Shown piece by piece: positions 17,155 through 62,952 of a stretch of DNA of 64,000 nt. Each line of letters opens with the position of its first letter. Within the stretch, counting starts at the first letter, position 1. The notes beneath the pieces were generated by a model that ran no database searches, was not told where the DNA came from, and worked only from the letters and a program-made list of their open reading frames with translations. Source of the stretch: Mobula hypostoma (taxonomy: Eukaryota); assembly GCF_963921235.1 (NCBI RefSeq), contig NC_086108.1, forward strand, positions 38,752,001-38,816,000, written 5' to 3'. The translations under genes were made by a program, and so were the position numbers.

Positions 17155-17664
17155 CTGTAAAAATCCAACGATACAAAGTTAAGATACATAAAAGTTTTTG
17201 GTGAACTTCTATATTGTGTCAGCTGTGCACAAGGAATGCAAAATTATACAGAACTTAAAATATGCCACATAGCCACTAATCTTCAATCACCAATGTGCTT
17301 CAAAGGAAGATTCAAGTATTTCTTCATTTATAGAAAGGACATGTGCAAGAATTAGATAGCAAGCCTTAAGCAATATTTAAAGAGGCTTGCCTAGTTTCAT
17401 AGCTAGAGAATGGATCGCGATGCAGAAACACATTTGCATTTTAGTATTGATTATGCAATTAAATATGACATAAAATGGAATTAAGCTTTGATGAATGTGT
17501 CAGATATTAGATTCTGTCACACTGCAGTACAAATATTTGCATATAATTAAAGCTGTTAGGTTAAAGTAATTTTAAATACCGATCTTGTTTGTAGAATTCA
17601 TATTCTACTAACTGGGAGCTAAAGACAGCTACTGTCCAAACAAACTAGTGTTGATCTTACCAAC

Positions 17665-18778
17665 CTATTCGGTCAAAACATTTATCACATTTTGGGCACT
17701 GGAGTGTCTTCTTGCTTCCAGTCTGTAAAATGACAGGAGGTAATTCCTTGGGAATATTTTGCTCAATCTCTTCTGCATCCAGAGAATCATTCTCATCATC
17801 CCCTTGAATTTCTTCCTCTCTTACCATCTCTTCAAGCTTTGCTTCAACTTCTTCCATTTCATCTTCACTTTCTAGACTTTCATGGGCATTATTGTTATTT
17901 TCAGTGTCACTACTATTTTTACTAGAGCATTCATCTTCAGAGACATCTGTGGTATCAATATTTTTACTACCAAATTTTGCTGGACATTTGCGTGTTCGCA
18001 TTGAACATCTTCTAGTAAGTTCAATTTTTGTTGCCTCAGAACTTTCTTCTTGTCCCAGGGAGCTGGCATTGTGAGCTTTAGTTATGTGGTTTTCTAAAGA
18101 TTTTTTGTAACAGAAACTTTTATTGCAGAAGGTGCATACATTGCTATGCTGGAATTTGGCAGTGGGTTCAAGGGAATCTGTTTCTTCCAAACACTGGTTA
18201 CTTTCAGTTAACAATTCTGTTTGGGTTGACCTGGACACATTTTCATTACTGGTCAACAATTTAACTGCATCAATAATGTCTAGAAACTGAGCAGCTTCCA
18301 AAATTGAAGGGATTTCACTTTCCTGAATGAAGAATTCAGAGGTGTATAAAAATTCTAATAAATGATGGAAAACATAATAACTAACATGGTCCAATTGGAT
18401 ACTATCCATATTTGGATTTTTACTTAAACAAGCATGGAAGTAACTGCTACCTACAGCAACAACCACTTTGTGGGCACAAAACTGCTTTCCTTCTACCATG
18501 ATAACTAAATCACAAAAAGGTGACTGCTTGAGTCGATCATCATTCATATATTTCAATAGATTCTTATTATGTAGCAGCGATCGCAGATGTACAATTGGTG
18601 TTGATTGTCCTAAAGGAACATCAAGATTGTCTGCAATATTTGAAATGCTTTGAATTGATCTTGGACCATAGTATAGATTTTCAAATTTTGCTGTTTGTAA
18701 ATCCAAGAAAACATCTTTGCATGGTGCTCCAGATAAACTTGATCCAGTTTTATAAGAATTGTCGATATTCTGAGACAT
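17665..18778 (-). CDS. ZBTB41: ZBTB41 coding exon 1: BTB/POZ domain, isolated C2H2 finger, acidic region and start of the finger array
   Basis: ORF 17657-18778 contains NKNLLKYMNDDR...FCDLVIMVEGKQFCAHKVVVAVGSSYFHACLSKNP...LLEFLYTSEFF, which I recognise as the ZBTB41 BTB. The ATG is in ACACCATG context with an upstream in-frame stop. The donor after 17665 (1114 nt, phase 1) joins exon 2 in frame. The exon acceptor is probably at 18958. Confidence 0.93.
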
Positions 18779-21089
18779 GGTGTTGATTAAGATTGCTGTG
18801 GATGAATATCCACTCTTCTCAGTCTGCAGTTACACAGTGGGCCATCATTGTGGATCAGAGGTATACAGTCTCAACATAAAATTTCCTTGCAATTTTCTTT
18901 GGTATCAGATAACCTCATACCCCACATCTTCTCGGGATGGTTGCAACATTCATCAAGCCTGCAAGATTATTCAAATATATGTTATACAAAACGTTACAAC
19001 ATGACTTACGCTTTACTTATGAATATTGACCAATTATTTGAAACATATGCCTAGTTGGCATTTAATGTCAAATTTCCAGTGTACTGCACAAAATAATTAT
19101 GCCAGTTGATAATCTGTTACCTAGAAATTGAATCAATTTTTGCACCCAAGTTTCAAAAGTGTGCTGGCAAGCTGACTGGCTACTGTAAATTATCCCTTAA
19201 AGTAGGCAAGTAGGAAAGAACAATACAAGGGAGTTAATAGCTACGTGTGACAGGATAAGTTGCAGGGCAAGAGAAAGAAAGGAAAGGAGACTGACAGAAG
19301 TCCACTGCTGAGATAGTGTGGACTGGGACCAAATGGCCCAAAAAAAATTGCCCAGTGACCAATATGCATCTAATGGTTTTATCCAATGCACAACACCCAT
19401 TTCCACACTTGTGAACAGAGGCTGGCTGCAAATCATGCACCTTATGATCTAAAGAATGTTAACACAAAGAAAAACAAGGAACAGATTCTGCCAAATCAGC
19501 AAGCAGGTAATTTAAGGGTCCACATGAGCCTTTGATACTTTATCCAATGACTCTGAAAGACTCAGTTTTTACTGCCCTAAATTTGTTCTATTGTCACATG
19601 TATTACTAGCATCATCTCTTTATGAATTATTTCAGTACGATGATGCAAATATTAGTCCTTTGATACGGCTGCACAGGTCTTCCCCAGCCAATGAATGCTC
19701 GATTTATGTAGACCCCCTACATACAAACAGGCTTTTGAGAGACAGGTAGATGAATATGCCAGCTGTTGCAGACAGCTTTGCTGTGTGGGAACTTGGTTCA
19801 GGTTAGGAACTCTTCCCAGGAAAAGAATTTGGGAACTCCTGGCACAGGGATTGTCAGACCATACTACTGCATAGAGTTTCTTTCATTTAACTGCATAGCC
19901 ACCCAAATATCGCCCATAATTAAACAAATTGAATATTTATTGCATTCAGTAATTGATACAATGAAACATGTTATTGCCAGATTTTAAATGATTTAAAAGC
20001 ATCAGGAAGAATTTGTGTGATGTCCAATTTCCTTTAGTCAGGTCATTAACTCTGGGAGCCCTTGCATTTGAATTACTTCAGAACAGATTAGTAGACTACA
20101 AGACAAAACAAGAATGTCAAGTACCTCAAATTAGAAAAAAAATTTTTGGATCTATAAGAAGTGTTAACCCAGTAACGTGCCCTTTAATATAGTTTAAATT
20201 TCTATCACATTTAGAGTCAGAAATAAGGAGTGTAAATGGGGAGAATTTTTGAGAATGTTAAAATCGAACAGTCCAAGCTTAGGCATAACCAAATAGAAAC
20301 TAACATCCAATGAAGCGTCCTTATCTCAATATCAACAAAGCAGTAGTTCCTGGCAAGGAAAGTGATATATTCAATGAGGTGATCCTTGTTGCCTGAAATT
20401 ATAACACTCCTATAAATGTACTGTGACATCTTTTGCTACAGCAGATCAGCAAAGCACTCTTTCCCACCCATTCACCTTTGTCATTTTCTTCCATTGTTTA
20501 AACATGGCCCCTCAATCATGCCCAGTTTTAAGATTTCTTCATTTCTAGTCTCTGAAATTGCTCTCTTAAATTTTTTGGTCTACATTTTTATTAAGCTACT
20601 CCTCCAAAGCTTACCTTCCTAGCCAAGATTTTGGTCACTATATAAAATTCATGTATGCAAAGTTACAATGAAACACTTAATGCTAAATGCTTGAGATACT
20701 GCTACAGGTAAGCGTTTCATCCCACTTGTCCAGATGTGAATTTGCACTTGTGACAACAAAACTGACTTTGACATGGTCTGGCTTGTCAATAGCGGGATGT
20801 TTTGCTGGGTTAAAGGCACAATATAAATGGAAGGTAACGATGCTCCCAACCAGTTGGAATCGGATGAGTTTCCAATTTAATTTCTGCCATCGGAGATTAA
20901 GGGCTTGGACTGGATTCAAAACAAGGCCAGAGAAGTTTAAAAAAAAGGTATGGTAACTCAGTGAGGCAGCGCATCCGAGTTTTATTAAGAACCCCCACCC
21001 CCCCCAACTCTTAACAGAAAATAGGTAGGATTACTTCTGACAAAATGATATTTTTGCTGAGCCTCCTTATGTCAAATAATTGATCTTGT

Positions 21090-22579: not shown

Positions 22580-24207
22580 AAATCAGAATCAGGTTTATTA
22601 TCACCGGCATGTGACATGAAATTTGTTAACTTAGCAGCAGTTCAATGCAATACATAACCTGGCAGAGAAAAAAATAATAATAAATAAAATAAAACAAAAA
22701 TAATAAATAAGTAAATCAATTGCAGTATACGTATATCGGATAGATTTTTAAAAATGCAAAAACAAAATTGCCATTTATTTAAAAAAAAGTGAGGTAGTGT
22801 CCAAAGATTCAATGTCCATTTAGGAATCAGGTGGCAGAGGGGAAGAAGCTGTTCCTGAATCACTGAGTGTGTGCCTTCAGGCTTCTGTACCTCCTACCTG
22901 ATGGTAACAGTGAGAAAAGGGGATGCCCTGGGTGCTGGAGGTCCTTAATAATGGACACTGCTTTTCTGAGACAGCGCTCCCTGAAGATGTCCTGGGTACT
23001 TTGTAGGCTAGTACCTAAGATGGTGCTGACTAGATTTACAACCTTCTGCAGCTTCTTTTGATACTGTGCAGTAGCCCCTCCATACCAGACAGTGATGTAG
23101 TCTGTCAGAATGTTCTCCATGGTACAACTATAGAAGTTTTTGAGGGTATTTGTTGACATACTAAATCTTTTCAAACTCCTAATAAAGTATAGCTGCTGTC
23201 TTGCCTTCTTTATATCTACATCAATATGTTGGGACCAGGTTAGATCCTCAGGGATCTTGACACCCAGGAACTTGAAAATGCTCACTTTCTTCACTTCTGA
23301 TCCCTCTATGAGGATTGTTATGTGTTTCTTTGTCTTACCCTTCCTGAAGTCCAAAATCAGCTCTTTCGTCTTACTGACATTGAGTGCCAGGTTGTTGCTG
23401 TGGCATCACTCCACTAGTTGGCATATCTCACTCCTGTACGCCCTCTCGTCACCACCTGAGATTCTACCAACAATGGTTGTATCATCAGCAAATTTATAGA
23501 TGGTATTTGAACTATGCCTAGCCACACAGTCATGTGTATATAGAGAGTAGAGCAGTGGGCTAAGCACACACCCCTGAAGTGCACCAGTGCTGATCATCAG
23601 TGAGGAGGATATGTTATCATCAATCCGCACAGACTTGGTCTTCCGGTTAGGAAGTCGAGGATCCAATTGCAAAGGGAGGTACAGAGGCCCAGGTTCTGCA
23701 ACTTCTCAAACAGGATTGTGGGAATGATGGTATTAAATGCTGAGCTATAGTCGATGAACAGCATCCTGACAGAGGTGTTTGTGTTGTCCAGGTGATCTAA
23801 AGCCATGTGGAGAGCCATTGAGTTTGCGACTGCCGTTGACCTATTGTGGCGATAAGCAAATTGCAGTGGGTCCAGGTCCTTGCTGAGGCAGGAGTTCAGT
23901 CTAGTCATGACCAACCTCTCAAAGCATTTCATCACTGTCGATGTGAGTGCTACCGGGTGATAGTCATTAAGGCAGCCCACATTTTTCTTCTTGGGCACTG
24001 ATATAATAGTTGCCGTTTTGAAGCAAGTGGGAACTTCTGCCCATAGCAGTGAGATGTTGAAAATGTCCTTGAGTACTCCCACTAGTTGGTTGGCACAGGT
24101 TTTCAGAGCCTTCCCAGGTACTCCATCAGTACCTTCCACCTTGTGAAGGTTCACTCTCTTTAAAGACAGCCTAACATAGGCCTCTGAGACAGAGATCACA
24201 GGGTCAA
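22580..24207 (-). mobile_element. Rex/Babar-like LINE: RT domain and 3' end
   Basis: ORFs 23597-24199 (DYHPVALTS...DPLQFAYR...[12 protein letters not shown]), 23406-23672 (QGCVLSPLLYSLYT...KFADD) and 22860-23354, with a (GATTCT)n-type tail at about 22580. Confidence 0.93.
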
Positions 24208-25418
24208 TATGTTAATAGTTGCAATAAACCATCTAAAGTTAAGAATCAACCCTAGAAGCTATTAATGGTGCTTTACAAAAAAAAGGATAAATCACGTTGA
24301 GACTTCAAAAAAATGTTGTTAATGTTATGTTTCTTTTTTCTCTTTTGTTCACAATGGAATGTTAGAAGTTTGTTAGTTGATAGTCAGAGAAGGGTTGTCA
24401 ATATAATTTTCTTTCTTTTAATCCTATAATGGAATGTTTGAAGTTTGTTAGCTGATGGTCAGGGAATTTTCATGCTTATAATACTATGTGTGTCTAAAGT
24501 GACACCAATTTGAAAGGAATGGTGGAGGAAGACTTTCTGGAAGAGAAGTATTTGATGTGCTTGAATGATACTCAGTAGGTGGCAGTAATGCACCTTACAT
24601 TGAAGAAGCCATGGTTCAGGAACAGTTACTACCGGTCAACCTTCAGGCTCTTGAACCAAAAGGGATAAATTCACTCATCTCCCTTCATCACTGAAATGTT
24701 CCCACAACCTATGGATTCAGTATCTCATGTTCTCCAACCACGTCTTAAGTGTATTAGAGTTTCACTGTAGTTAAACGAAAATAAAGGGAAATACTGTAAA
24801 ATGTTTCACTCATTAAAAATAATGCAAATTAAGTAATATGCAGACAATTAAAGTTCATTGCAACGCATCTGCAGATGTGTGCTTTGATGGAGAATGCAGA
24901 TATAATACAAACAAAGAACGAGGTTCCTGGGGCACTGGAGACTTGTGTATCTTTGAGAGGCTAATACAATGGCGGAGTATGAATTTCCTAGAACTTACTG
25001 TTCTGCTTCCTGTGTACCCACTTCACACTTGTGGAATCTGTGGCCAAATTGTCTGATAAAACAGCCAGCTCCGAATTCAAAATCAAGAAAACAATTACAT
25101 TTATATTTGCGCAGTTTGATGACACAAGTTGAATCCAAGGAGAGTTTTCAAACACTATTTGACAGAACCCTGTGAAGAGGATGACTCGGCTTAGGCAAAG
25201 TCTGGGCCAAAGGTGTATACTTAAGGGATTCTCTTAAAGGAAAAGAGAAAGTCAGAGAGGTTAGTTGGGAAGTTGAGATTTAGCCTTGTTAATTGAAAGT
25301 GTGCTGGAAGAGTTTAATTCAGAGGTGATTAAAGACTAGAAGTGGAAAGACATAAATATCTCAGGAGGTTGAAGGAGTGGTTGGGGGGGGTGTTCTGAAG
25401 AGGAAGGAGCAAGGATAA

Positions 25419-25569
25419 ACAACAGAAATTCTGCAGATGCTGGAAATTCAAGCAACACACATCAAAGTTGCTGGTGAACGCAGCAGGCCAGGCAGCATCT
25501 GTAGGAAGAGGTGCAGTCGACATTTCAGGCCGAGACCCTTCGTCAGGACTAACTGAAGCAAGAGTGAGT
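25419..25569 (-). mobile_element. Short Penelope-derived (pLTR) insertion carrying a hammerhead-ribozyme motif, with 15-bp TSD
   Basis: Flanked by AAGGAGCAAGGATAA at 25404-25418 and 25570-25584. Homologous to the terminal region of the Penelope copy at 38580-38680. Confidence 0.85.
25514..25551 (-). ncRNA. Minimal type I hammerhead ribozyme motif (Penelope-associated)
   Basis: Minus strand reads TAGTC-CTGACGA-A-GGGT(CTCG)GCCT-GAAA-TGTC-GACTG: CUGANGA box, stem II, GAAA box, GUC cleavage triplet and stem I pairing AGTC/GACT. Confidence 0.7.
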
Positions 25570-25879
25570 AAGGAGCAAGGATAATTTCTTTAAAACAAAG
25601 GCATTGTTTAACTCAGAGAAAATGAGTAAATCTTAAACAAGTTGAGAAACATAGAGCTTTGTGAAGGATGATTTCAGGTTTATGGAAGGTAGATATTTAG
25701 GGTGGCATTGGTGAGGATATCTCAAGCAGATAAACAGAGGTAGGGATGGAGTCAGGAAATGCAATGATTCTCAAGAGGGTGAGCAGCCAGAGCTTATAGC
25801 ACACATTGACGTAGGTAGAAAGGGGGGAGAGCTATTGCACAGTGAGTATAGGCAGTGAGGGAAGAGCTGAAAAACAGGA

Positions 25880-27985
25880 CCTCCAAGGCAGAAATCTCTG
25901 GATTGCTGCTCAGGGCAGGAATAGGCTGATAGAACAGGTGAAGGAGAGGCTGAGGATGGGTTGCAGGGGGCAGGGTTTCAGATTTCTGGATCAATGGAAT
26001 CTCTTCTGGGAAAGGTATGACGTGTATGGAAAGGAAAGGTTACTCCTGAACCTGAGGGGGGAAGCAATATCCTTGCGGGCAGATTTTCTAGAGCTGTTGG
26101 AGAGGGTTTCAACTAAGTTGGCTAGGGTATGGGAACAAGAGTGATAGGGCTGAGGATGGGGCGGTTGGTATACAAGTTGATGCAGTGTGTAGTGAGACCA
26201 TGAGGATGAACATGCAAATTATAGGGCAAAATTGAAGCCAGTGGAGTGAGTTGAAGTAAATCATGGGGGTAAAATCGAAAAAGGTGATGAATACGGGCTG
26301 AAGGTGATAGATTTCAATGCGCCCAATATACGAAATAAAGTTGATGATCTGATAATGCAGTTAGAGTTTGGCAATTATGATGTGAGCATCACTGAGTCGT
26401 GGCTGAAAGAAGATCATAGTTGGGAGCTTAACATCCATAATATACCTTGTATCAAAAGGGCAGGCAGGTAGGCAGAAGGGGTGGGTGGCCTTGGTAAAAA
26501 AAAATGAAATCAAATCCTTGGAAAGAGGTGACATAGAAGATGTGGAATCCATGTGGGTAGATTTAAGAAACTGCAAAGATAACAGACACTGATCAGATTT
26601 TATATACAGGCCCCCTAACAGTAGCCAGGATATACATTTCAATGGAAAATAGATGGGTATGTAATAACGGCAATGTTACATACCATAGTAATGGGGGATT
26701 TCAGTATGCATGTAGTTTGGGAAAATCAGGTTGATGCTGCATCCCAAGAGAGGGAATTTCTAGAATACTTTGGAGATGGCTTTGCGAAAAGCTTGTGGTT
26801 AATCTCACTAAGGAAAAGGCAATTCTAGATTGGGTGTTGTGCAATAAACCAGATTTGATTTGGGAGCTTAAGGTAAAGGAACCCTTGGGAGATAATGATC
26901 ATAATATGATCAATTCACCCTGCAGTTTGAGAGAGAGAAAAACAAAGTCAGATGTATCAGTGTAAAAGTGGAGTAGAGGAAATATATAGGCATGACAGAG
27001 GAGCTGTCAAAGTTGGTTGGAAGGGAACTCTCGCAGAACAGAAATGGCTGGAGTTGTTGGGGGTAATTTGAATAGATACATGAAGAAGTATTCTAAAGGG
27101 AGAATGAGGCAACCCTGGCAGATGAGGGAAATCAAAGACAGCATGAAAGCAAAAGAGAAGGCATATAATACAGTACAGCAAAAATTAGTGGGAAGTTAGA
27201 GAATTGAGAAGCTTTTAAAAACCAACAGAAGGCAGCCAAAAAAACCATAGAGTGAAAAGATGAAGTTAAGCTAGCCAATAATGTAAAAGAGGATACCAAA
27301 TGTTTTTCAGTTATATAAAGTAGAGGCGAGATTGGATATTGAACCGCTGGAGAGGTAGTAATAGGGACAAAGAAATGGCAGTTGAGCTGCTTAAATACTT
27401 TGCATCAGACTTCACTGTGGCAGACAGTAGTAGAATACTCAAAATTCAAGCGTGTCAGGGAGCAGAAGTGACAGTAGTTGCTATTACGAAGAAGAAGGTG
27501 CATGGGAAGCTGAAAGGTCTTTAGGTGAGTCACCTGGATGAGATAGACTACATCCCAGGGTTCTGAAAGAGGAAGCTGAAGTGCTTGTAGGGGCATTAGT
27601 GATGATATTTCAAGAATCACTAGATTCTGGAATGGTTCAAGAGGACTGGGAAGTTGCAAATGTCACTCCACACTTCAAGAAGGGAGGGAGGCAGAAGAAA
27701 GGAAATTCTAGGTCAGTCAGCCAGGCTTCAGTGTTTGGGAAGTTATCAGGAGTCCATTATTTAGGATGAGATTTTGTGGTACTTGGAGGCACATGACAAG
27801 GTAGGCCAAAGGTAGCATGGTTTCCTTAATGACAAATCTGTTGGAATTCTTTGAAGAAATAATAGATAGGATAGATCTGGATTTTCTGAATGCCTTTCAC
27901 AAGATGCCACACACGAAGCTGCTTAACAAGAACCCATGGTATTACAGGAAAGGTTCTGGCATGGATAGAAAATTAGCCCATATGA
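25880..27985 (+). mobile_element. Degenerate CR1 LINE (ORF1 esterase-like remnant, ORF2 endonuclease and RT)
   Basis: GFRFLDQWNLFW...LNLRG ORF1 remnant, then EN motifs (YRPPNS, MGDF) and IFQESLDSGMV.EDW.VANVTP.FKKG. Many stops and frameshifts. Confidence 0.85.
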
Positions 27986-36714: not shown

Positions 36715-38682
36715 ATTCTGATATCATTCTATCTCCCTTTGTACAGTCCCTTCTCACCTAGATCCACGACACATCACACGCCCTCGATCTCCCCAACAAC
36801 TTCAATTCCCTGACTCTGACCGCCTCATTTTCGCAATGGAAGTCCAGTCCTTATATGCATCTATCCCACATCAAGAAAGTGTTAAGGGTCTCCGCTTCCT
36901 GCTCAAAAAAGTTAACATCCTATGGTGTTACAGGAAAGATACTGGCATGGATAGAAGAATGGCTAACAGGCAGGAGGCAGTGAGTTGGAATAAAGGTTGC
37001 CTATTCTGGGTGGCTGTTGATGACTAGTGGTGTTCCTCAGGAGCCAATATTGGGGCTGCTACTTTACACATTGTTTGTCAATGATTTAGATAATGGAATT
37101 TATGGCTTTGTGGTAAAGATAGGTGGAGGGGTATGTAGTGCTGGGGATCCAATGAGATTGCAGCAGGACTTGAATGGATGGGCAAAAAAATGGCAGATGG
37201 AATACAGTGCTGGGAAATGTATGATAAAGCACTTTGGTAAAAGGAACAATAGTGCAGATTATTATCTAAGTGGGGAAAAAATTCAAACATTGTCTTGTAA
37301 GGGGACTTAGGAGTCCTCATGCAAGACTCCCAGAAGGTTAATTTACAGGTTGAGTCTGTGGTAAAGAAGTCAAACGCAGTGTTGGCATTCATTTCATGGG
37401 GAATAGAATATAAAAATGAGGAGATAATGCTGAGGCTTTATAAGGCACTAGTCAGGTCACACAGAGTATTGTCAGCAGTTCTGAGCCCCGTAGAAAAGGT
37501 CCAGAGGAGGTTCACGAGGATGATTCCAGGAATGAATGGGTTAACATATGAGAACCATTTGGCAGCTTAGGTCCTGTTCTCACTTGAATTTAGATGAATG
37601 AGTGGGAATCTCATTGAAACCAAGCGAACGTTGAAAGGACTAGATGAGGTGGATGTGGAGAGGATGTTTCCTATGGTGCGGATGCCCAGAATTAAAGGGC
37701 ACAGTCTCAAAATTGAGGGGCGACCCTTTAGAACAGAGGTAAGGAATTTTTTTACCCCTAGAGTGGTGAATCTGTGGAATGCTCGTCCACAGACTGTGGT
37801 GGAGGCCAAGTCGGTGGGTATATTTAAAGTGAAAATTAATAGTTTCCGATTGGTCTGGGCATTAGAGGATCTGGCCAGAAGGCAGGTGTACGGGGTTGAG
37901 TGGGATCCAGGATCAGCCATGACGGAATGGCGGAGAAGACTCGATGGTCCGAATGGCCTAATTCTGTTCCTTATGGTGAAGTGACACTTCAACTGCAAGT
38001 CCATTGTGGTCATCTACTGTATCCGGAGCTCCTGGTGTGGCCTCCTGTATATCGGTGAGCCCCAACGTACATTGAGAGGTCGCTTCACCAAGCACCCATG
38101 CTCCATCTGCCAGAAAAAGAAGGATCTCCCAGCAGCAACCCATTTCAATTCCACTTCCCATTCCCATTCCGACCTGCCAGACCACGGTCTCCTCTGCTTC
38201 CACACTAAGGTCACATCCAGATCGAAGGAGCAAGACCTTATATTTTGTCTGCGTAACCTCAACCTGATGGCATGAACATTGATATCTCAAACTTCTGGTA
38301 ATTGCACCGTCCTCCCACCTCCTTCTCCGTTCCCCATTCCTGTTTCCCTCTCTCACCTTATCACCTTACCTGCCTCTGGTGCTCCTCCCCCTTCCCTTTC
38401 TTCCATGGTCTTCTATCTTTTCCTATCAGACCCCCCCTTCTCCAGCTCCTTCTCTCTTTCACCAATCAATTTTCCTGCTTTTTATTTCACCTCCTCCCCT
38501 CTCCTGGTTTCACCTTTCACCTACCACCTTGTACTTCCTCCCCTTCCCCTACCTCTTTACTCTGACTTCTCCTCTTCCTTTTCAGTCCCGAAGAAGGGTC
38601 TTGGCTTGAAACGTCAACTGCTTATTCTTTTCTGTAGATGCTGCCTGGCCTGCTGAGTTCCTCCAGCATTTTGTGTGTGTTG
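36715..38682 (+). mobile_element. Penelope-like element (RT fragment, GIY-YIG endonuclease, pLTR), interrupted by CR1
   Basis: 36715-36905 reads RLIFAMEVQSLYASIPHQE (PLE RT D.SLYTSIP-type motif). 38006-38275 reads VIYCIRSSWCGLLYIGE...RFTKH...ATHFN (GIY-YIG). A pyrimidine-rich 3' region and pLTR with a decayed hammerhead follow at 38583-38620. Confidence 0.88.
36906..37976 (+). mobile_element. CR1 LINE RT C-terminal part and 3' UTR, nested in the Penelope element
   Basis: SGVPQEPILGLLLYTLFVNDLD, WAKKWQMEY, VQRRFTRMIPG and GHSLKI motifs. Confidence 0.88.
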
Positions 38683-39319
38683 CGATGATACCCACAGCAT
38701 GAGGTGGCACAGTAGAACCCTGAGTGATTGTACAATCTGGATGTTATATAGTGTTTACTTACGCTGAGAACTTGGAAAATTTTTTAAGTCCACAAGTTTT
38801 TTTTTAATGCAGTTTCCTATGACTTCTTTGCCGAAAGTGCTGGCCTCAAGCTCCTTTTTGGCTTTTTAACACTGCACTTAAGCTTTCTGGTGGTGTTGAC
38901 ATCATACTAAGCTTTTCATTCTATATAGCTGCCAGTTTTGTCTTCTGCAGGCTGTCCCTGTGATGTGTCACCCTGTGTCCTCTGCAACAGGACTGTTACA
39001 TCAATTCACCTCCCAGGAGCTGGATCCTGTGCTTTTTCAATGTGTGCCTTGGCTAGACCACTGCCTGCCCTGCCTGCTAACTCACCATATGATGTTCCTG
39101 CTGAACTAACGTCCAACGAATGTGCAATATCTGTACCTGAGCTGGTGAATCAAGTGTTGGAATGTCTTCATCTTCAGTGTCATTTTGAGTATCTACCACT
39201 GCCTTGCCAATGTATGAGAATGCAACTGATATACAAGCTTTAATTGATAATTGGTAGTTAAAAAGGGTACCGCTGGATTAGCATTATTTCAAAGCATGGT
39301 TCAGTTAATGGGATAGGGT

Positions 39320-40870: not shown

Positions 40871-41062
40871 AACGCATACAAAATGCTGGCGGAACTCAGC
40901 CGGCCAAGCAGCATCTATGGAAAGGAAGAAAGAGTCAATATTTTGGGTTGAAACCCTTCATAAGATCTTGCCCTGAAACGTTGATTGTTTACTTCTTTCC
41001 TGTTGAGTTCCTCCAGCATTTTGTTATGTGTTACCCTGGATTTCCACATCTGCAGAATCTAA
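40871..41062. mobile_element. Palindromic Penelope-pLTR derivative (inverted pair of terminal regions)
   Basis: Left arm CAAAATGCTGGCGGAACTCAGC is the reverse complement of right arm GTTGAGTTCCTCCAGCATTTTG. The centre contains decayed hammerhead halves on both strands. Confidence 0.7.
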
Positions 41063-41734
41063 CGTGCTTAACATTTTGACACTTTGGCTGCCTGAGATCT
41101 TTTAGTGGCTGGGTGCCAGGTTCCTAAAGCCACCCAGATCAACCAGACAGTCCGGGTGAGTGAGGAACATCTTTATTAAAGAGTAAAGTGTCTTTATTAT
41201 AGAGTAAAGTTGAGAGAAGAGGAGGAATTAACAGTGACCTTTACCAATTAATTAAATTTTGATCCTTATAAATCTTAAGCATGCATCTGTTTAAAGTGGC
41301 TGACATCTGAGCATACTCAAGTGGTCATGCAACTTGTCAGTAACATGGTTCCATCTATAGCAAGTTTACTTGTAAAGATGAAGGTTCTTTACCAATGTGT
41401 ATGAAGCAGTGAAACAAAATTATAATATGAACTTATTAATATTGTTAAAGTGTACAGACTAAATACCAATAAATGATACACAGTCATTTCTAACCACATA
41501 AAATGTACATTATTATTTTATACTACCAGCGTAATGTATTTCAAGCATAGTTTATCTCCTGTGTTTAGCAGATAGGGTGATTGTTACTGCCTTAAGTAAA
41601 TCAGAGTTGTAATATGTATTTTGGCTGTTTTTCATAGTATATTATTTCTATCATGGTTGTCATTTGAAATATTTTGAACATAATATTTGAATAATTTTTA
41701 ATAAAATAATACCATATTTTGCATTACTTGGATG

Positions 41735-44194: not shown

Positions 44195-44362
44195 GATCAG
44201 AGAACTGCAGATGCTGGATATCTGAAGTGATAACAGAAAATTCTGGAAACACCCAGTGGGTTAGGCAGCATCTGTGTGGACAGAAGTAGAGTTAACATTT
44301 CAGGTCAAATAAGGATTCTGATAAGGGAACTTCAACCTAAAATGTTAAGTCTGGTTCACTTT
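44195..44362. mobile_element. Palindromic Penelope-pLTR derivative, left portion (continues at about 47667-47750)
   Basis: CTGCAGATGCTGG...GGCAGCATCTG on the left arm. The complementary arm resumes as ...GTGCTGCCTGA...CCAGCATCTGCAG after the Gypsy insert. Confidence 0.55.
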
Positions 44363-44557: not shown

Positions 44558-47500
44558 TGTGGTAAACCATGTATATATGTTGTAACTCGGTTGCTTGTCA
44601 GGACACACCCCTCTGCTGACTGCCCCTGTGGCTCCTCCCACAGAGTCCTGTATAAAGGTGTTCGCCTTGCCCCTCCCCCTCAGTCCAGGGGCAGACACTC
44701 ACTGTGGAGGTCGTATTGTACAGCGAATAAAAGCCTTTCAGTATTTTACCAAACCTCAGTCTTTTGGAGTAATTGAAGGTGCTTCAATTTTATTCGCTCG
44801 ACCAACGGGTGCTCACGGGCCACCCCACCGCGCCAGACCAAGACAGCGACCCCACCCTGGCTTCCGTGACCCTCGACCAAAGCGCTCCCCACCAGCTCGC
44901 AAGGTCACTGATGGACATCCTGGTGGAGGGGCACAGGACAAGCTGCCTGTTTGACACAGGCAGCACGGAGAGTTTTATCCACCCAGCCACAGTGCAGCAT
45001 TGTGGACTGATGATACGGCTGATAAGTCAGAGGGTCACCATGGCCTCCAGGTCGCATACAACAGACATCTGGGGGGGTTGTGTAGCGACACTAGTGGTGC
45101 AGGGCACAGAATATCGCGACTTTAAGTTACTGGTCTTGCCTCAACTGTGTGCCCCTGTGCTGTTGGGGTTGGACTTCCAGAGCCACCTGAAAAGCGTGAC
45201 AATGAAGTATGATGGGCCCCTCCCGCCAATTACTGTCATAAATGCCCTGTTTTGTAGAGATATGTCACGTACCCCGCTACTGACCACACACACACACCGA
45301 CCCGCGCATCCCACCCAACATCATGCCAACTGCCACACTACTGACACCACTTGCGGCCTCTCCACCCTCAGGATCCCTCCCCCACCGCTGTTCGCCAACC
45401 TGACCCCCGACTGTAAACCTGTGACAACTAAAAGCAGGAGGTACAGCGCGGGGGACAGAGCTTTCATTAAGTCGGAGGTGCAGCTGCTGCTCAGGGAGGG
45501 GGTCACTGAGGCAAGCACAAGTCCTTGGAGGGCGCAGGTGGTGGTTGTTCGGAACGGGGAGAAGAATAGGATGGTCGTGGACTATAGCCAGACCATCAAC
45601 AGGTTCACGCAGCTCGACGCGTACCCTCTACCCCGCATCGCGGATATGGTCAATCAGATAGCACAGTACAAGGTGTACTCGACCATAGACCTAAAATCCG
45701 CTTACCATCAGCTCCCCATCCGCCGGGAGGACCGCCCTTACACTGCCTTCGAGGCGGACGGCAGGCTTTATCAATTCCTGCGCATCCCCTTTGGCGTCAC
45801 GAATGGTGTATCTGTCTTCCAGAGGGCAATGGACCGGATGCTGGACCAGTGCCAACTGAAGGCCACGTTCCCATATCTGGATAGCATCACCATCTGCGGT
45901 CACGACCAGCAGGATCACGACAACAACCTCCAAAAATTTCTCCAAGCGGCCAAATCTTTCAACCTCACCTATAACAAGGACAAGTGTGTATTTGGGACCA
46001 CCCGACTTGCTATCCTTGGGTGTGTTGTGGAGAACGGAGTCATTGGCCCTGACCCCGACCGTATGCGCCCCCTGTTGGAACTCCCTCTTCCCAATACCCT
46101 CAGAGCCCTCAAAAGGTGCCTGGGCTACTTTTCATATTATGCCCAATGGGTCTCTAACTATGCAGACAAGACCCGCCCCCTGGTCAAGTTCACCACATTC
46201 CCCCTCTCTGCCGAGGCCCGCGCGGCCTTCAACCGCATTAAAGGGGACATTGCCAAAGCAGCAATGCATGCGGTGGATGAGGCCATTCCCTTCCAAGTAG
46301 AGAGTGACGCCTCCGACTTTGCGCTGGCTGCTACCCTCAACCAGGCAGGAAGACCAGTGGCGTTCTTCTCCCGTACCCTTCAAGGCTCTGAAATTCGGCA
46401 CTCTGCGGTAGAGAAAGAGGCCCAGGCCATAGTGAAAGCTATAAGGCACTGGAGGCACTATCTTGCCGGCAAAAGGTTCACCCTGCTAACTGACCAGCGC
46501 TGAGTCGCATTCATGTTTAATAATCAGCAGCGGAGCAAAATCAAAAATGATAAAATTCTGAAGTGGAGAATCGAACTCTTCACCTACAACTATGACATCA
46601 TGTACAGGCCTGGGAAGCTCAACGAGCCCTCTGATGCCCTATCCCGGGGAACATGTGCCAGCGCGCAGATCGACCAGCTATACGCTCTACATGTAGACCT
46701 TTGCCACCCGGGAGTCACCCGGCTTTTCCACTTCGTGAAAGCCCGGAACCTGCCTTACTCTCTTGAGGAGATCAGGATGATGACCAGGGACTGCCAAGTC
46801 TGCGCAGAGTGCAAACTGCACTTCTACCGACCCGAAAAGGCACCACTCATCAAGGCCACCCGCCCCTTTGAGCGACTGAGCGTTGACTTTAAGGGCCCCC
46901 TTCCCTCCACCAACCGCAACGTGTACTTTCTTAACGTAATTGACGAGTACTCGCGGTTCCCCTTCGCCATCCCCTGCCCCGACACCACTACCACGTCAGT
47001 TATAAAAGCCCTGCGCAAGCTCTTCACTCTGCTCGGATACCCATGCTATATCCACAGTGACAGAGGGTCCTCGTTTATGAGTGACGAGCTGCGCCAATAT
47101 CTACTGGCTAGGGGAATTGCAACCAGTAGGACCACGAGCTATAATCCCCGGGGGAATGGACAGGTAGAGAAGGAGAATGGCACAGTGTGGAAAACCACAC
47201 TCTTAGCCCTCAGGTCAAAGGGACTGCTGGTCTCCCGCTGGCAGGAGGTCCTTCCCGAGGCACTCCACTCCATCCGCTCCCTGTTATGCACAGCCACCAA
47301 TGCCACCCCTCATGAGCGGCTCTTTTCTTTTCCCAGAAAATCGACCACTGGAACCACCCTACCATCTTGGCTGACGTCCCCGGGGCCAGTGCTGCTCCAG
47401 AAACATGCGAGGAGCAATAAATACTCCCCGATAGTCGAGAGGGTTCAGTTACTTCATGCGAACCCCCAGTATGCCTACGTGGTTTTACCTGATGGGCGGG

Positions 47501-47666
47501 AGGACACGGTCTCCATCCGCGACCTGGCGCCCGCAGGAGCTCCGGGCTCCTACCCTGAACACTCCGTGGTGACTATTGACCCCGTACCCACCAATGTATG
47601 TACCTACGAGACACCGTGCACTCCAAACCCTATACAGACACCACACGACACTCCCATACCCGGCCC
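44558..47666 (+). mobile_element. Ty3/Gypsy element: 5' LTR plus nearly intact pol; gag and 3' LTR missing
   Basis: LTR-like 44558-44786 (TG...CA, TATAAA, AATAAA). ORF 44773-46503 has protease LFDTGS, RT (YLDS for YLDD/N) and RNase H. After one in-frame TGA, ORF 46513-47685 has integrase (HPG..C..C..C, VDFKGP, HSDRG, GNGQVEK). Confidence 0.9.
44773..47666 (+). pseudogene. Gypsy pol (PR-RT-RH-IN) with a single in-frame stop at 46501-46503
   Basis: ORFs 44773-46503 and 46513-47685 share a frame (offset 1740 nt). The junction reads TDQR*VAFMF. Confidence 0.88.
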
Positions 47667-48343
47667 CTCCATAGGTGCTGCCTGAGCTACTGAGTTCTTC
47701 CGGCATTTTGTGTTTGTTACTCTAGATTTCCAGCATCTGCAGAATCATCTCTGTTCTGTACCTTTGTTCTACCTGCCCCTCTCTCATCTCTGCTGCTAAA
47801 AACTAACATTTTCTATCTGTCTCCATTCTGATAAAGGGTCTTAGTCTTAGTCTTAAAATTTTAATTGTTTCTCTTAACACAGACGCAGACAAACCTGATG
47901 AGCATTTCTAGCATTTTTTGGTTTTAAGATTTCAAGTATCTTTTGATTTCCATTTCCCTATTTGTGTGTATCTATTATATCACAGTAAGTGCTGGAAATA
48001 TTCAGCAGTCTAACATTTTCTGAAATACTGTGGAGAGAGAATTAGAATTATACAATGTTATAGCACATAAAATAATCAATTAATTGGTTGTGATTTTTGA
48101 AATAAGTTACCTATCACTAAATAATTGGGAAATTGTTTACTCACAGTGTTATACCAGCTTACTCAGTAATTCTGAATTATAGAAGCCATGGATACTTAAC
48201 AATCCCGCTGCCTTTTGGATGAGGTATCAGTAATGAATGAATTATAGCACACGTCCCCTTCTTAACAGTTCTGTTTCATTTTAGGATGATCTTTGATTTC
48301 TAATTTTCCTTTGTTCCTCTGAAAAGTTATCAGTCTGAAATGT

Positions 48344-48603
48344 TGTGGCGACCCACTCTCCAGCACACACGAACCGGCGCACACCGGCGGAGAGACCGGC
48401 CCCAAAAAGGGCGCCAGGCCATCTTCACCAGCAGGGGGAAAGAGTCTGTGATTATGCATTCCCCACAGCAGTCCCGCCCAGGGAGGGCAGGAACGGGAAG
48501 GCTTTAAAGCGGGCCGCGAAGTTTGAATAAAACTCTTTCATCACAACTCTAACTCACCGACTACGTATGGTTATTTTAGCGCTGTGTGTAGCACACCGCT
48601 ACA
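48344..48603 (+). repeat. 5' LTR
   Basis: TGTGGCGAC...GCTACA, a direct repeat of 52413-52688. It lacks an approximately 16-bp segment present in the 3' LTR. Confidence 0.95.
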
Positions 48604-48643
48604 ATTGGTAACCCCGAGGGCCCAAACAATATTTGGACCAGAG

Positions 48644-49330
48644 ATGATCGACGCTGCATCTGTTCACGCAGTTTCGTTAAAACTGCCAAGCTTTTGGGCG
48701 CTGCGACCCCATCTGTGGTTCGATCAAGCAGAAGCTCAATTCCACATTTGGCAGATAACCTCGGAGTCCACTCGCTACTACTACGTGCTGAGCTCCCTCG
48801 ACCAGGAGACAGCTGCACAAGTTGAGGAATTTATACAGTCGCCCCCGGAGGACGGCAAATACACAGCATTCAAAGCCCTGCTCATAAGGACTTTCGGACC
48901 CTCACGGCGCAAAAGAGCACGTCGCTTAATGTACCAGGATGGTTTGGGAGACAGGCTGCCGTCAGCATTAATGAACGAGATGCTGGCCCTGGCTGAAGGA
49001 CACAAACCCTGCCTCATGTTTGAGCAGGCATTCCTAGAGCAACTGCCCGAGCACGTATGCCTGCTGCTGTCCGACACAGATTTCAGCGACCCCCGGGAGG
49101 TGGTGGCCCGGGCAGATGCGCTGTGGAATGCCAGGAAAGAGAGAGGGCCGTCCGTCGGACAGATTACCAAGCCGCGTGCCCAATGGCAGACCAGACCAGG
49201 TCCGGCAGCACAGCCTACAAAACCCGGCGACAGGAGTGAGGAACCCAACGAACAATGGCGCTTCTACCACCAGCAGTGGGGCACAGAGGCCCGCCGCTGT
49301 AGACCACCCTGCAAATTCCCAGGAAACGCC
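48644..49330 (+). CDS. Gypsy Gag (capsid-like) up to the frameshift site
   Basis: MIDAASVHAVSLKLPSFW...FYHQQWG.EARRC.PPC inside ORF 48584-49498. Confidence 0.8.
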
Positions 49331-49366
49331 AGGGCCAGCCGCCGCCGATCGCTACGGCGGCTGGCC
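49321..49366 (+). promoter_or_regulatory. -1 programmed ribosomal frameshift cassette (gag/pol)
   Basis: Heptamer A-GGA-AAC in gag phase, 5-nt spacer and a perfect 12-bp stem GGCCAGCCGCCG / CGGCGGCTGGCC. Pol lies in the -1 frame. Confidence 0.8.
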
Positions 49367-49416
49367 ATTAGGACAGCCTCCTATACGTCTGGGTCAAGCA
49401 GTCGGGACGCCACTTT

Positions 49417-52330
49417 TTGGTTGACACCGGAGCGGAGATCAGCGTCTTACCTCCAACGAGTTACGGTACCCGCAACAGAGAACCGGGACCCACCCTGAGG
49501 GCCGCAAATGGCAGCACAATACGAACCTACGGCACCCACACAGTGCGGCTACAGTTCAGCTCCAGCCGGTTCACATGGGACTTCACACTGGCCGCCGTGG
49601 CCCAACCACTCCTGGGGGCGGATTTTCTGCGAGCCCACAGCCTGCTGGTCGACCTGCAAGGGAAGCGATTAGTCCACGCCAAGACTTTTCAAACGTTCTC
49701 CCTGGGTGAAGCGAAGTTGCCAGCCCATCACCTGGACTCCATCACGCTGTCCAACGATGAATTCACCAGGGTCCTGGCGGATCTCCCATCAGTACTGACA
49801 CCGCAGTTCACGGCAGCCATGCCCAGACACGGAGTACAGCACCACATCCCGACCCAGGGACCACCCCTCCACGCTCGTGCTCGAAGGCTTCCCCCCGACA
49901 AGCTCCGACTGGCGAAGGAGGAGTTCAAGAAGATGGAGGAATTGGGGATCATACGACGGTCCGACAGCCCATGGGCCTCCCCTCTGCACGTGGTGCCCAA
50001 GGCAACGGGGGGCTGGAGACCATGCGGTGACTACCGCAGACTGAATGAGGCTACAACGCCAGACCGCTACCCTGTGCCGCACATTCAAGACTTCGCAGCA
50101 AACCTACACGGCGCAAGGATCTTTTCCAAGATAGACCTCGTCCGGGGATACCATCAAATCCCGGTACTTCCAGACGACATCCCCAAAACAGCACTCATCA
50201 CCCCGTTCGGCCTTTTTGAATTCCTCCGAATGCCGTTTGGTCTAAAGCATGCCGCACAGACGTTCCAGCGGCTAATGGATGCGGTGGGACGCGACCTGGA
50301 CTTTGCATTCATCTATTTGGACGACATCCTCATAGCCAGCAGTAGTCGTCAGAAACATCTGTCCCACCTCCGCCAGCTCTACTCCCACCTGAGTGAATTC
50401 GGCCTTACTATCAACCTGGCCAAATGCCAGTTTGGACTCGACACCATCGACTTCCTGGGCCACAGGATTACTAAAGACGGGGCAATCCCTCTGCCCGCCA
50501 AGGTAAACGTGGTCCGCCACTTCCCCCGACCCAACACAATCAAAAGCCTGCAGGAATTCGTGGGTATGGTGAACTTCAACCACCGTTTCCTCCCCTCAGC
50601 AGCCCGAACCATGCACCCCCTGTTCACTCTGATGTCGGGTAAGGGCAAGAACATTACCTGGGACGAAGAGGCTGCAGCCACTTTTGTTAAAACCAAGGAA
50701 ACCTTGGCAAATGCCACGATGCTAGTGCACCCCAGAACAGACGCTCCTACTGCCCTCACGGTGGATGCATCCAACACAGCGGTCGGTGGAGTGCTGGAGC
50801 AGCTCATCGAGGGTCGCTGGCAACCCATGGCGTTCTTCAGCAAACATCTACGACTACCCAAACTCAAATACAGTGCTTTCGACCGGGAGCTATTGGCACT
50901 ATACCTGGCAATCCGGCATTTCAGATACTTCTTAGAAGGTAGGCCCTTCACCGCGTTCACAGACCACAAACCGCTTACCTTTGCGTTCACGAAAGTGTCC
51001 GACCCCTGGTTGTCCCGCCAGCAGCGCCATCTGTCCTACATCTCCAAGTACACAACGGACATCCGGCATGTCTCGGGAAAGGACAACGTCGTGGCGGACG
51101 CACCTTCCAGACGTACCATACAGGCCCTGTCCCAGGGGGTGGACTATGCAGCGCTGGCAGAGGCACAGCAGGCAGACGCTGAGATCCCCAGTTACAGGAC
51201 TGCAGTGTCGGGTTTGTAGCTTCAAGACCTCCCCGTAGACCCAGGTGAGAGGACCCTACTATGTGACGTAGCTACCGGCCAACCCCGCCCCGTCGTCCCA
51301 GTAGCCTGGCGTCGGCAGGTTTTTCGAATCCATTCACAACTTAGTGCACCCCTCCATCAGGACAACCGTCCGCCTGGTCGCCAACAGGTTCGTGTGGCAT
51401 GGACTTCGTAAACATGTCAGTGAATGGGCCAAAACGTGCATGCAGTGCCAAACGGCCAAGGTGCAGCGGCATACCAAGGCTCCGCCGCAGCAGTTCGAAC
51501 CCACCCGCCGGAGGTTCGACCACATTCATGTGGATATCGTGGGGCTCCTGCCAGTGTCACGAGGAGCGTGGTACCTCCTAACTATGATAGACCGGTTCAC
51601 CAGATGGCCAGAGGCAGTCCTGCTCACCGACACCACCTCCGAATCCTGTGCCCGAGCACTGATCACAACCTGGGTAGCCCGCTTCGGGGTACCGGCCCAC
51701 ATTACCTCCGACAGGGGCGCCCAGTTCACCTCCAGCCTGTGGTCGGCTATGGCCAGCCTTTTAGGATCGCAGCTACACCACACAACTGCCTACCACCCAC
51801 AGTCGAACGGAGTAGTGGAGCGTTTCCACCGTCACCTGAAGTTGGCTCTCATGGCCTGCCTGAAAGGGCCTAACTGGGTGGACGAGCTTCCCTGAGTCCT
51901 GCTCGGAATCCGCTCGGCGCCCAAGGAGGATCTGCACACCTCATCGCCCAAGTTGGTGTATGGGGCACCCCTGGTCGTCCCAGGAGAGTTCATAACAGCC
52001 CCAAGGGGGCAAGAGGAAGAACCTGCAGCAGTCCTGGACAGACTACGTGAGAGGCTCGGTAACCTGGCCCCCATACCCACTTCACAGCATGGACAGAGCC
52101 CGACCTGCGTACCCGAAGACCTGCAGAACTGTAATTTTCTTTTTGTACAACGGGGCGGACACCAGGCACCGCTACAGCGCCTACAAGGGGCCATTTAAGG
52201 TGATCAGGAACAACGGGTCCACGTTCGTGCTGGACATTGGCGGGAGAGAGGAGGTTTTCACAGTGGACCGACTCAAACCGGCCCATGTGGACTTGGCACA
52301 GCCGGTCCAGGCTCAGGCACCGCGGCGCAG
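49417..52330 (+). pseudogene. Gypsy pol (PR, RT, RNase H, integrase), disrupted
   Basis: ORF 49417-51219 (600 aa), TAG at 51217, a frameshift near 51320, then integrase ORF 51344-51895 ending in a premature TGA and a YKGPF tail at about 52180. Confidence 0.9.
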
Positions 52331-52412
52331 GGGCAGACCTCCCAAACAGAGGCCGATCCAGACTGTGGACATTGGGGGAGGTATTGCCGGTTCTGGAGGG
52401 GGGGGGACGTTA

Positions 52413-52688
52413 TGTGGCGACCCACTTTCTAGCACACACGAACCGGCGCGCGCCGGCAGAGAGGCCGGCCCCAAAAAGAGCGCCAGGCCGTCTTCACCAG
52501 CAGGGGGAAAATCCCGCGTGCGGAAAGAGTCTGCGATTATGCATTCCCCACAGTAGTCCCGCCCAGGGAGGGCGGGAACGGGAAGGCTTTAAAGCAGGCC
52601 ACGTAGTTTGAATAAATCTCTTTCATCACAGCTCTAACTCACCAACTACGTGTGGTTATTTTAGCGCTGTGTGTAGCACACTGCTACA
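52413..52688 (+). repeat. 3' LTR
   Basis: Direct repeat of 48344-48603, followed by TSD ATGT. Confidence 0.95.
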
Positions 52689-53014
52689 ATGTTACCTTTT
52701 TATCACTCCACAGATGCGTCCTGAACTCCAAAGTACTTACAGGATTTTCTGTTGTTGTTTCATATCTCCAAAATCTGCAGGTTCATTGCTTTTTACCTCC
52801 ACTCTTGTCTGCAGATATAAATGCTAACAGATCTCAGAATTCATTTTTCAACCTGTTCAACAAATTATTTCTATTCTTAGCCACTTTGTTGATCATTTAC
52901 ACCATGAAAACAGTCCTCCATATCAATCCCACCTTCGAGCACTTGGCCAATTGTCTTCTATGCTGAAGTGATTCCAGTTCTAGTCTTGATGCTCCTAAAT
53001 AATATTAATAAGTT

Positions 53015-62704: not shown

Positions 62705-62842
62705 ATAAACGCAAGAGATTATGCAAATACTGGAAATCCGGAGCACCCCATAGAAAATGCTGGAGGAACTCAACAGGTCAGGCAGCATCTTTGGACAGGA
62801 ATAAACAGTTGACTTTTCTGGATGAGAGCCTTCACCAGGATT
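62705..62842 (-). mobile_element. Penelope-pLTR-derived short element (degenerate)
   Basis: AAAATGCTGGAGGAACTCAACAGGTCAGGCAGCATCT matches the 25419-25569 family. Confidence 0.7.
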
Positions 62843-62952
62843 TTTTTTATTGTTTAATTCTGAAAAATATTACTTTAACTCTTTTTCTATTTTTTATAAT
62901 TTTTCTTCCCCCCCCCCCATCCCACCCCTCTCTTCCCGGTAACCTTGCTAGT

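Follow-up and report, generated by a model that had tools for sequence, protein, structure and literature searches.

Introduction

The minimal hammerhead ribozymes found in the pLTRs of Penelope-like elements (PLEs) have been described mostly as single motifs, ascribed to truncated PLEs, together with some close pairs on opposite strands (PMC4209133, Cervera and de la Pena 2014). Minimal type I hammerheads are present in the Xena, Poseidon and Neptune elements of fishes (PMC4209133), and minimal hammerheads are considered to be of low activity and dependent on dimers (reviewed in PMC6765202). PLE insertions are known to exhibit 5' truncation, inverted pLTRs, partial tandems, tails, target-site duplications (TSDs) of 8-10 bp and microhomology at their junctions (PMC8557442, PMC3846280, PMC8969392), and a C-x2-5-CxxC linker is a mark of the Neptune and Nematis groups (PMC8557442). 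In vitro, a PLE of the anole was shown to insert unprocessed RNA, to begin reverse transcription inside the tail and to prefer AT-rich targets; the ribozyme of this element cleaves only with the protein, and ribozyme mutants still insert (PMC11167929).

In this study, we examined a 151-bp insert located in the window, the whole stretch of 64 kb of DNA that was analysed. The original prediction had regarded this insert as a hammerhead-bearing, SINE-like unit, with extreme 5' truncation of a full element as an alternative reading. Our results strongly favor the latter: the insert is very probably a recent copy of a PLE 3' end (the end of the pLTR, a minimal hammerhead and a tail), extremely 5'-truncated and derived from a very high-copy EN+ element, probably a Neptune, in what is probably an elasmobranch genome.

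Results

A 151-bp insert between exact target-site duplications

The insert occupies positions 25419-25569 and is bordered by two exact, unstranded copies of AAGGAGCAAGGATAA (left TSD copy, 25404-25418; right TSD copy, 25570-25584). This 15-mer occurs only twice in the 64-kb window, both strands counted, and the longest flanking repeat among 1500 random 151-bp intervals (with a slack of ±10) was 10 bp long, none of the 1500 exceeding that length. The coordinates and the perfect 15-bp TSD originally claimed for the 151-bp insert were therefore exact.

The family to which the insert belongs was followed in contigs of four DNA or unlabelled runs out of 24 (X1, X5, X9 and X10; one per organism, A to D), matched to positions 25150-25850 at 80% likeness; 24 of 1039 rows of loose ends and 15 of 60 joints were listed. 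Both TSD copies share bases with the element. The last two bases of the left copy (25417-25418) are also the sequence of the element 3' terminus, with loose ends before 25417 in all four runs, and this 2-base match is likely to be a priming microhomology. At the other side, the first three bases of the right copy (25570-25572) match the continuation of the family, which constitutes a 3-nt microhomology at the 5' junction. Family homology thus ranges from 25417 to 25572, including two bases of the left and three of the right TSD. The right junction is crossed by contig 8 of X1, which covers 25542-25850 with 0 differences, and the 20 bases to the right of the TSD have an AT content of 75%. In the contigs of the four runs, no empty site was found among the 15 of 60 joints listed, and no contig spanning the whole stretch among the contigs listed.

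On the minus strand, the 5' part of the insert (25552-25569) is a pyrimidine-rich remnant of the upstream 3' UTR/pLTR that ends at the truncation point, the family continuing at 25572/25573; it aligns weakly, and with low complexity, to the upstream region of a long copy described below. The proposal that this short RNA was retrotransposed as a unit holds in so far as insertion by retrotransposition with a TSD is concerned, but not for a discrete 151-bp unit, since the family continues past the 5' end of the insert.

Some 300 bases downstream of the insert lies a decayed, moderately repeated coding stretch (25860-26100), whose translation presumably resembles the esterase-type ORF1 of CR1/L2 LINEs. 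Elsewhere in the window, an exon of a host BTB/POZ zinc-finger (ZBTB-type) gene was recognized at 17657-18829 on the minus strand (Pfam BTB, E 8.5e-23).

Minimal type I hammerhead of the insert

The sequence of the insert contains a minimal type I hammerhead at 25514-25551 (minus strand), with an architecture like that described in PMC4209133. It comprises stem I (UAGUC, 25551-25547, with GACUG, 25518-25514), the CUGACGA box (25546-25540), a bulged A (25539), a stem II of 4 bp (GGGU/GCCU, 25538-25527), the GAAA box (25526-25523), a helix III of sequence AUGU (25523-25520) and the GUC site (25521-25519), all on the minus strand, with predicted cleavage after C17, between 25519 and 25518. The catalytic boxes, both stems and the GUC site that had been predicted were all found, and they could be assigned to a strand, which the earlier description had not specified. 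The motif has the attributes of a type I PLE hammerhead, i.e. CUGANGA and GAAA boxes, an NUH site, helices I and II and a bulge after A9. The insert is the sole match in the 64 kb to a strict core pattern, and a looser pattern of the boxes, with no stem required, arose in 116 of 20000 shuffled versions of the insert. Rfam did not detect the hammerhead in the window at the gathering threshold, nor in 25200-25800 at E<=10; a match to PrrB/RsmZ with an E of 1.7 was taken as chance. Pattern scans of prokaryote genomes yielded 0 matches, and those obtained in 1 viral and 27 metagenome loci were attributed to chance, all 28 being alike only over 20-29 bases around the pattern.

The very short palindromic stem III attributed to this hammerhead is a property of the family rather than of the focal copy. 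Helix III is the non-palindromic AUGU in the insert, whereas the majority base at 25522, which accounts for 74-82% of the depth in all four runs, restores the palindrome ACGU. Position 11.1 (25527) also varies among organisms. It is U in the focal copy, and the canonical C at this position is the minority base in organisms A (20%) and B (28%) but the majority in C (74%) and D (70%); a subfamily with U11.1, and hence with an altered closing pair of stem II, has expanded, being in the majority in A and B and not in C and D.

Pairing of the stems was assessed in an alignment of six decayed copies of the window, from which partial copies and a split copy were left out. In this set, 75.9% of the stem cells were paired, compared with 18-53% in slid controls, and two-sided changes were present at three pairs of stem I; the values were reached by 69 of 500 shuffles for pairing and by 133 of 500 for covariation.

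N7 is C in this hammerhead, and the catalytic box (25541-25544) is complementary to the cleavage-site strand (25519-25522), so that a rod-like fold, with the core concealed, is predicted for the monomer. Folding did not favor a stable hammerhead in the 156-nt RNA, where the pair probabilities of stems I and II were about 0.02; in the isolated 38-mer both stems were predicted to form, but with a self-paired core. Such a rod might possibly represent an off state, relieved by a dimer or by protein. Considering the AUGU helix III and the predicted sequestration of the core, the ribozyme of the focal copy is probably inactive. Moreover, the cleavage site is located inside the insert, and thus the ribozyme did not cut the unit out.

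The 3' tail

Downstream of the hammerhead, the insert continues into a 3' tail with a predicted stem-loop (25419-25513, minus strand), a type of structure already known from PLEs (PMC11167929, PMC8557442). The tail (92 nt) folds modestly better than its shuffles (z -2.12; 6 of 200 as stable), while neither the whole insert (z -0.21) nor the hammerhead region (z +0.40) is more stable than shuffled sequence. The 3' ends of the family pile up at 25417, although the consensus beside the junction suggests that some copies may run a few bases beyond this position. No open frame is conserved in the tail between the focal and the long copies. Pol III box patterns found neither an A nor a B box with up to one mismatch on either strand of the insert, which likewise gave no tRNA and no match in Rfam. 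No tandem repeat was present in 24000-27000.

A long copy linked to reverse transcriptase and GIY-YIG remnants

The decayed copy previously noted near 38583 is real, but it is not a short one: it forms the 3' end of a long element with remnants of a reverse transcriptase (RT) and of a GIY-YIG endonuclease, all of them on the plus strand. The part homologous to the insert (38584-38683) is 78% identical to it over 102 columns and belongs to a stretch (38303-38683) composed of a 3' UTR, with approximately 280 pyrimidine-rich bases between the GIY-YIG remnant and the 38584 copy, the hammerhead (~38583-38620) and the tail. It is preceded by the decayed GIY-YIG endonuclease, at the end of the ORF (37976-38302; Pfam GIY-YIG, E 0.009, below the cut-off), and by an RT motif remnant of 46 residues (36773-36910) which shows 38% identity over 29 aa to an RT-GIY-YIG protein, P0112 (pairwise E 2e-6). 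Both remnants are separated by a LINE-like RT fragment (~36912-37975) that replaces most of the RT region.

The GIY-YIG remnant has 748 relatives at E values up to 0.001, the closest of the ten named among them being proteins of Hypanus sabinus (about 53-54%, E 2e-27), Rhincodon typus and Leucoraja erinacea. In the longer relatives, RT and GIY-YIG are found in one ORF, and the closest ones (P0003, P0005 and P0020) carry a C-x2-5-CxxC linker before GIY-YIG, a region that is lost in the long copy of the window. Judging from this cysteine linker, which is also present in Nematis, the element is probably of the Neptune type. One of these relatives, the Hypanus sabinus protein P0003, bears the name 'mucin-2 isoform X2', and its C-terminal end is the GIY-YIG domain of this element; this 'mucin-2' is probably a transposon read as a gene.

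The position of the hammerhead and tail behind GIY-YIG and RT remnants identifies the module as the 3' end of an EN+ PLE, the host of which is probably an elasmobranch, and the 78% identity of the insert to this copy bears out the Penelope-like origin that had been proposed for it. The ORF-linked copy, with its 78% identity, belongs to an older subfamily; for the focal subfamily itself, no copy linked to an ORF was encountered.

Other copies in the window

BLAST revealed five related stretches in the window. A profile built from eight stretches gave ten matches with E below 1e-4, corresponding to the eight inputs and two new ones (47825-47941 and 52688-52794). All five related copies that had been reported, near 38583, 40950, 44315, 47825 and 62810, were recovered as real by BLAST or the profile. 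A further, weak profile match (48321-48345, E 8) is the other half of the copy at 52688, and altogether the window holds nine copies besides the focal one.

Their arrangement is diverse. Two head-to-head inverted pairs of older copies, both unstranded, were located at 40875-41065, with the junction at the start of the hammerhead, and at 44200-44358. On the plus strand, two successive older copies at 47665-47945 form a probable partial tandem, the first having lost its 5' part at LTR-retrotransposon sequence, and another older copy (48315-52794, plus strand; 52688-52794 with E 1.5e-9 and 48321-48345 with E 8) is split inside the hammerhead by an LTR retrotransposon (~48344-52688) with a 4-bp duplication. 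Finally, in a short older copy on the minus strand (62705-62846), homology seems to end some 2 nt short of the CUGA box. The 5' end of the focal insert is visibly common to none of these nine copies, being hidden or unclear in two; their own 5' ends vary, some ending elsewhere and some running into the ORF. When flanking repeats were searched at seven intervals, only the focal one exceeded 9 bp, none of the six others having a TSD above that length.

Two Gypsy-like LTR retrotransposons with long pol ORFs were observed among these copies. The LTRs of the element at 48344-52688, lying inside the old hammerhead copy with its 4-bp duplication, are 87% alike, and the one at 44558-47665 adjoins another hammerhead copy.

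Clustering of both 5' ends and inversion junctions seems to occur where stem I begins (25547-25551 family-wide; 62846, 40970 and 44315 in the window). In addition, the focal and the long copies have a pyrimidine tract followed by AG just upstream of the core, resembling a splice acceptor.

The family in contigs of four organisms

The region of the hammerhead and tail is very abundant in all four runs. In X1, the depth summed over the insert reached 4e6-1.6e7 against approximately 14-22 in the unique flank, giving a ratio of 4-8 x 10^5 which is not a copy number. This ratio presumably fits, in order of magnitude, ten copies per 64 kb if the genome is of a few Gb, and a rough estimate places the copy number of the family very high, on the order of 10^5.

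Loose ends at 25417 were found in the four runs (697, 568, 235 and 386 contigs) with an agreement of about 0.4, and the flanks past this position are long, heterogeneous and A-rich; this sharp edge is the 3' end of the family. A different situation was found at the opposite side, where loose ends behind 25572 (141 contigs in X1, 186 in X5 and 29 in X9) exhibited an agreement of 0.64-0.71 and median lengths of 11-16, with further ones at 25573 (73 and 56 contigs). For X10, no row at 25572 appeared among the loose-end rows listed. In these three of the four runs, one common, purine-rich sequence lies past 25572, known for about 30 bases, which means that the family extends beyond the focal 5' end.

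Another class of loose ends was detected in all four runs at 25550, the start of stem I (in X1, 579 contigs with a median of 107 nt and an agreement of 0.41). Its consensus is purine-rich and resembles the UTR of an older subfamily, like that of the long copy. Joints to the opposite strand occurred at 25546-25550 in X1, X5 and X10. Furthermore, the X1 depth dropped about sevenfold after 25557, from 8.4e6 (25534-25557) to 1.2e6 (25558-25581), although edge effects lower the depth. Either a discrete short class or other subfamilies could be behind this drop and the 25550 class. The 24 loose-end rows listed, of 1039, included none at the cleavage site, a number too small to weigh.

In the X1 rows listed, the base of the window is the minority at only two places (25501 and 25522), indicating that the focal copy is young.

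Discussion

Origin of the insert

The different comparisons make extreme 5' truncation, mentioned in the original prediction as an alternative, the better reading: the family continues past the 5' end of the insert, the junctions show microhomology, the ends of the copies vary and the cleavage site is internal. The family also displays known marks of PLEs, namely a fixed 3' end (25417, four of four runs), continuation at the 5' side (three of four runs), and copies arranged in two inverted pairs and a probable partial tandem. As for the ribozyme, it travels as a passenger of the pLTR and sets neither end of the insert.

The likely course of events would start with read-through transcription of an element arranged in tandem or partial tandem, giving an RNA that comprises ORF, UTR, hammerhead and tail. 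By analogy with the biochemistry of the anole Poseidon, the RT/GIY-YIG protein would nick the AT-rich target on the plus strand after 25418, and the freed 3' AA, as the microhomology present at this junction suggests, would pair with UU of the tail and prime reverse transcription internally. The RT would then copy about 156 nt through an uncleaved hammerhead, the state of the template being indicated by the location of the cleavage site inside the insert. The cDNA might be joined to a second nick 15 bp away through the three bases in common at the 5' junction, and fill-in would finally generate the 15-bp TSD. We infer in this way the positions of the nicks, the priming, the state of the template and the inactivity of the focal copy, which was most likely dead on arrival.

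It seems quite unlikely that most short copies derive instead from a discrete short template, with reverse transcription starting in the tail of a 5' pLTR and running off a fixed 5' end of the transcript at stem I (a start site or a splice acceptor). This would produce a defined class of hammerhead-plus-tail copies of about 135 nt, and the focal copy would either slightly exceed this length or fall outside the class. Such a class would account for the joints at 25546-25550 (X1, X5 and X10), for the loose ends at 25550 in all four runs and for the three of nine other window copies that appear to start at most ~5 nt from the CUGA box (62846, 40970 and 44315); the pyrimidine tract and AG preceding the core in the focal and long copies are in agreement with it, as is an intron of D. 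virilis Penelope with its end on the 5' side of helix I (PMC4209133). However, the focal copy reaches about 20 nt past the stem I point and its subfamily goes further, and the consensus at 25550 is the UTR of an older subfamily, neither random flank nor a common exon. Besides, two of these three starts coincide with inversion junctions, which are known from PLEs, and the ends of the three copies are uncertain because all of them are old and decayed. It is likewise doubtful that elasmobranchs harbor a hammerhead family that would be among the largest in vertebrates (on the order of 10^5 copies or more) and in which many copies form a discrete class of ~135 nt fixed at stem I.

A non-autonomous SINE-like family that has master copies of its own and propagates itself, with units of exactly 151 bp mobilised in trans by the PLE enzyme, would be consistent with the clean TSD, the short length and the great abundance in all four runs, and non-autonomous PLE derivatives are known in Chlamydomonas (PMC8557442). 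Nevertheless, we consider such a family very improbable: there is neither a tRNA nor a Pol III box, the family continues past the 5' end, this end sits in microhomology, and it is visibly present in no other copy of the window. What stands of the SINE-like proposal is the abundance of the family and an RT/GIY-YIG element as its likely mobiliser, and not the discrete 151-bp unit. Even less credible is a monomer from a non-LTR retrozyme, in which a circular RNA running from cleavage to cleavage would have been reinserted singly. Retrozymes, which are related to PLEs and leave solo monomers, are present in one sampled chondrichthyan genome (bioRxiv 10.64898/2026.07.22.740005), but 24000-27000 contains no tandem repeat, the single hammerhead is minimal and lacks a canonical loop 1, neither end lies at the cleavage site, and the upstream sequence is PLE 3' UTR, connected to an ORF in the long copy. 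Furthermore, no same-orientation joint of the tail end to upstream sequence stood out among the joints listed (15 of 60).

Significance

In all likelihood, the insert is a young truncated PLE insertion produced in the ordinary way by a known process, not a new kind of mobile element. Its value resides in junctions that are clean and readable, with microhomologies of 2 and 3 nt, a 15-bp TSD, an AT-rich target and an uncleaved ribozyme, in agreement with the in vitro finding that insertion needs no hammerhead cleavage. With about ten copies per 64 kb and a very high depth in four species, the family offers unusual statistical power to map the 3' and 5' ends of PLEs, and the same abundance would allow selection on the ribozyme core to be addressed between subfamilies. 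An expansion of the U11.1 variant in one lineage would be a natural experiment on the relevance of ribozyme activity to the spread of PLEs. If the class at stem I were true, short hammerhead-plus-tail insertions and head-to-head inversions would be a regular by-product, a promoter-less analogue of SINEs, and the profile of 5' ends would map the start of the element's transcript.

Comparison with known systems

In listings of the literature, we found no description of the hammerhead of this family in sharks or rays, and none of the focal family among non-autonomous forms; the supplements of PMC4209133 and bioRxiv 10.64898/2026.07.22.740005 may list chondrichthyan motifs. In the portion of PMC4209133 considered here, cartilaginous fishes are not named among the hosts of hammerheads, and organisms A and B of this study differ in being dominated by U, not C, at 11.1. 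The abundance of the family, although a rough estimate, appears far above the 4,000 motifs of the coelacanth and the 9,000 of Xenopus given in that work.

The non-LTR retrozymes of animals resemble the insert in being non-coding, hammerhead-bearing, related to PLEs and of a similar size range, but they form tandem arrays, typically have canonical hammerheads and give rise to circular RNAs (PMC7229834; bioRxiv 10.64898/2026.07.22.740005), whereas the insert occurs singly, its hammerhead is minimal and its ends bear no relation to the cleavage site. More features are shared with PAc (Poseidon, Anolis carolinensis), in which a hammerhead is also followed by a tail of about 100 nt, with internal and multiple 3' ends, an AT-rich target and an uncleaved template. 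PAc belongs, however, to another clade, and its reverse transcription starts in an AC-rich stem-loop that has no homology to its target (PMC11167929), while the end of the focal copy is a U-rich stretch that matches the target over 2 nt. As to the Neptune EN+ PLEs, the focal copy encodes nothing and the long copy of the window is devoid of the linker region. Nevertheless, these elements coincide with the family in the C-terminal GIY-YIG after RT, the cysteine linker (present in the closest relatives), the hammerhead in the pLTR and the tail, as well as in 5' truncation and in the occurrence of inverted and partial-tandem copies (PMC8557442).
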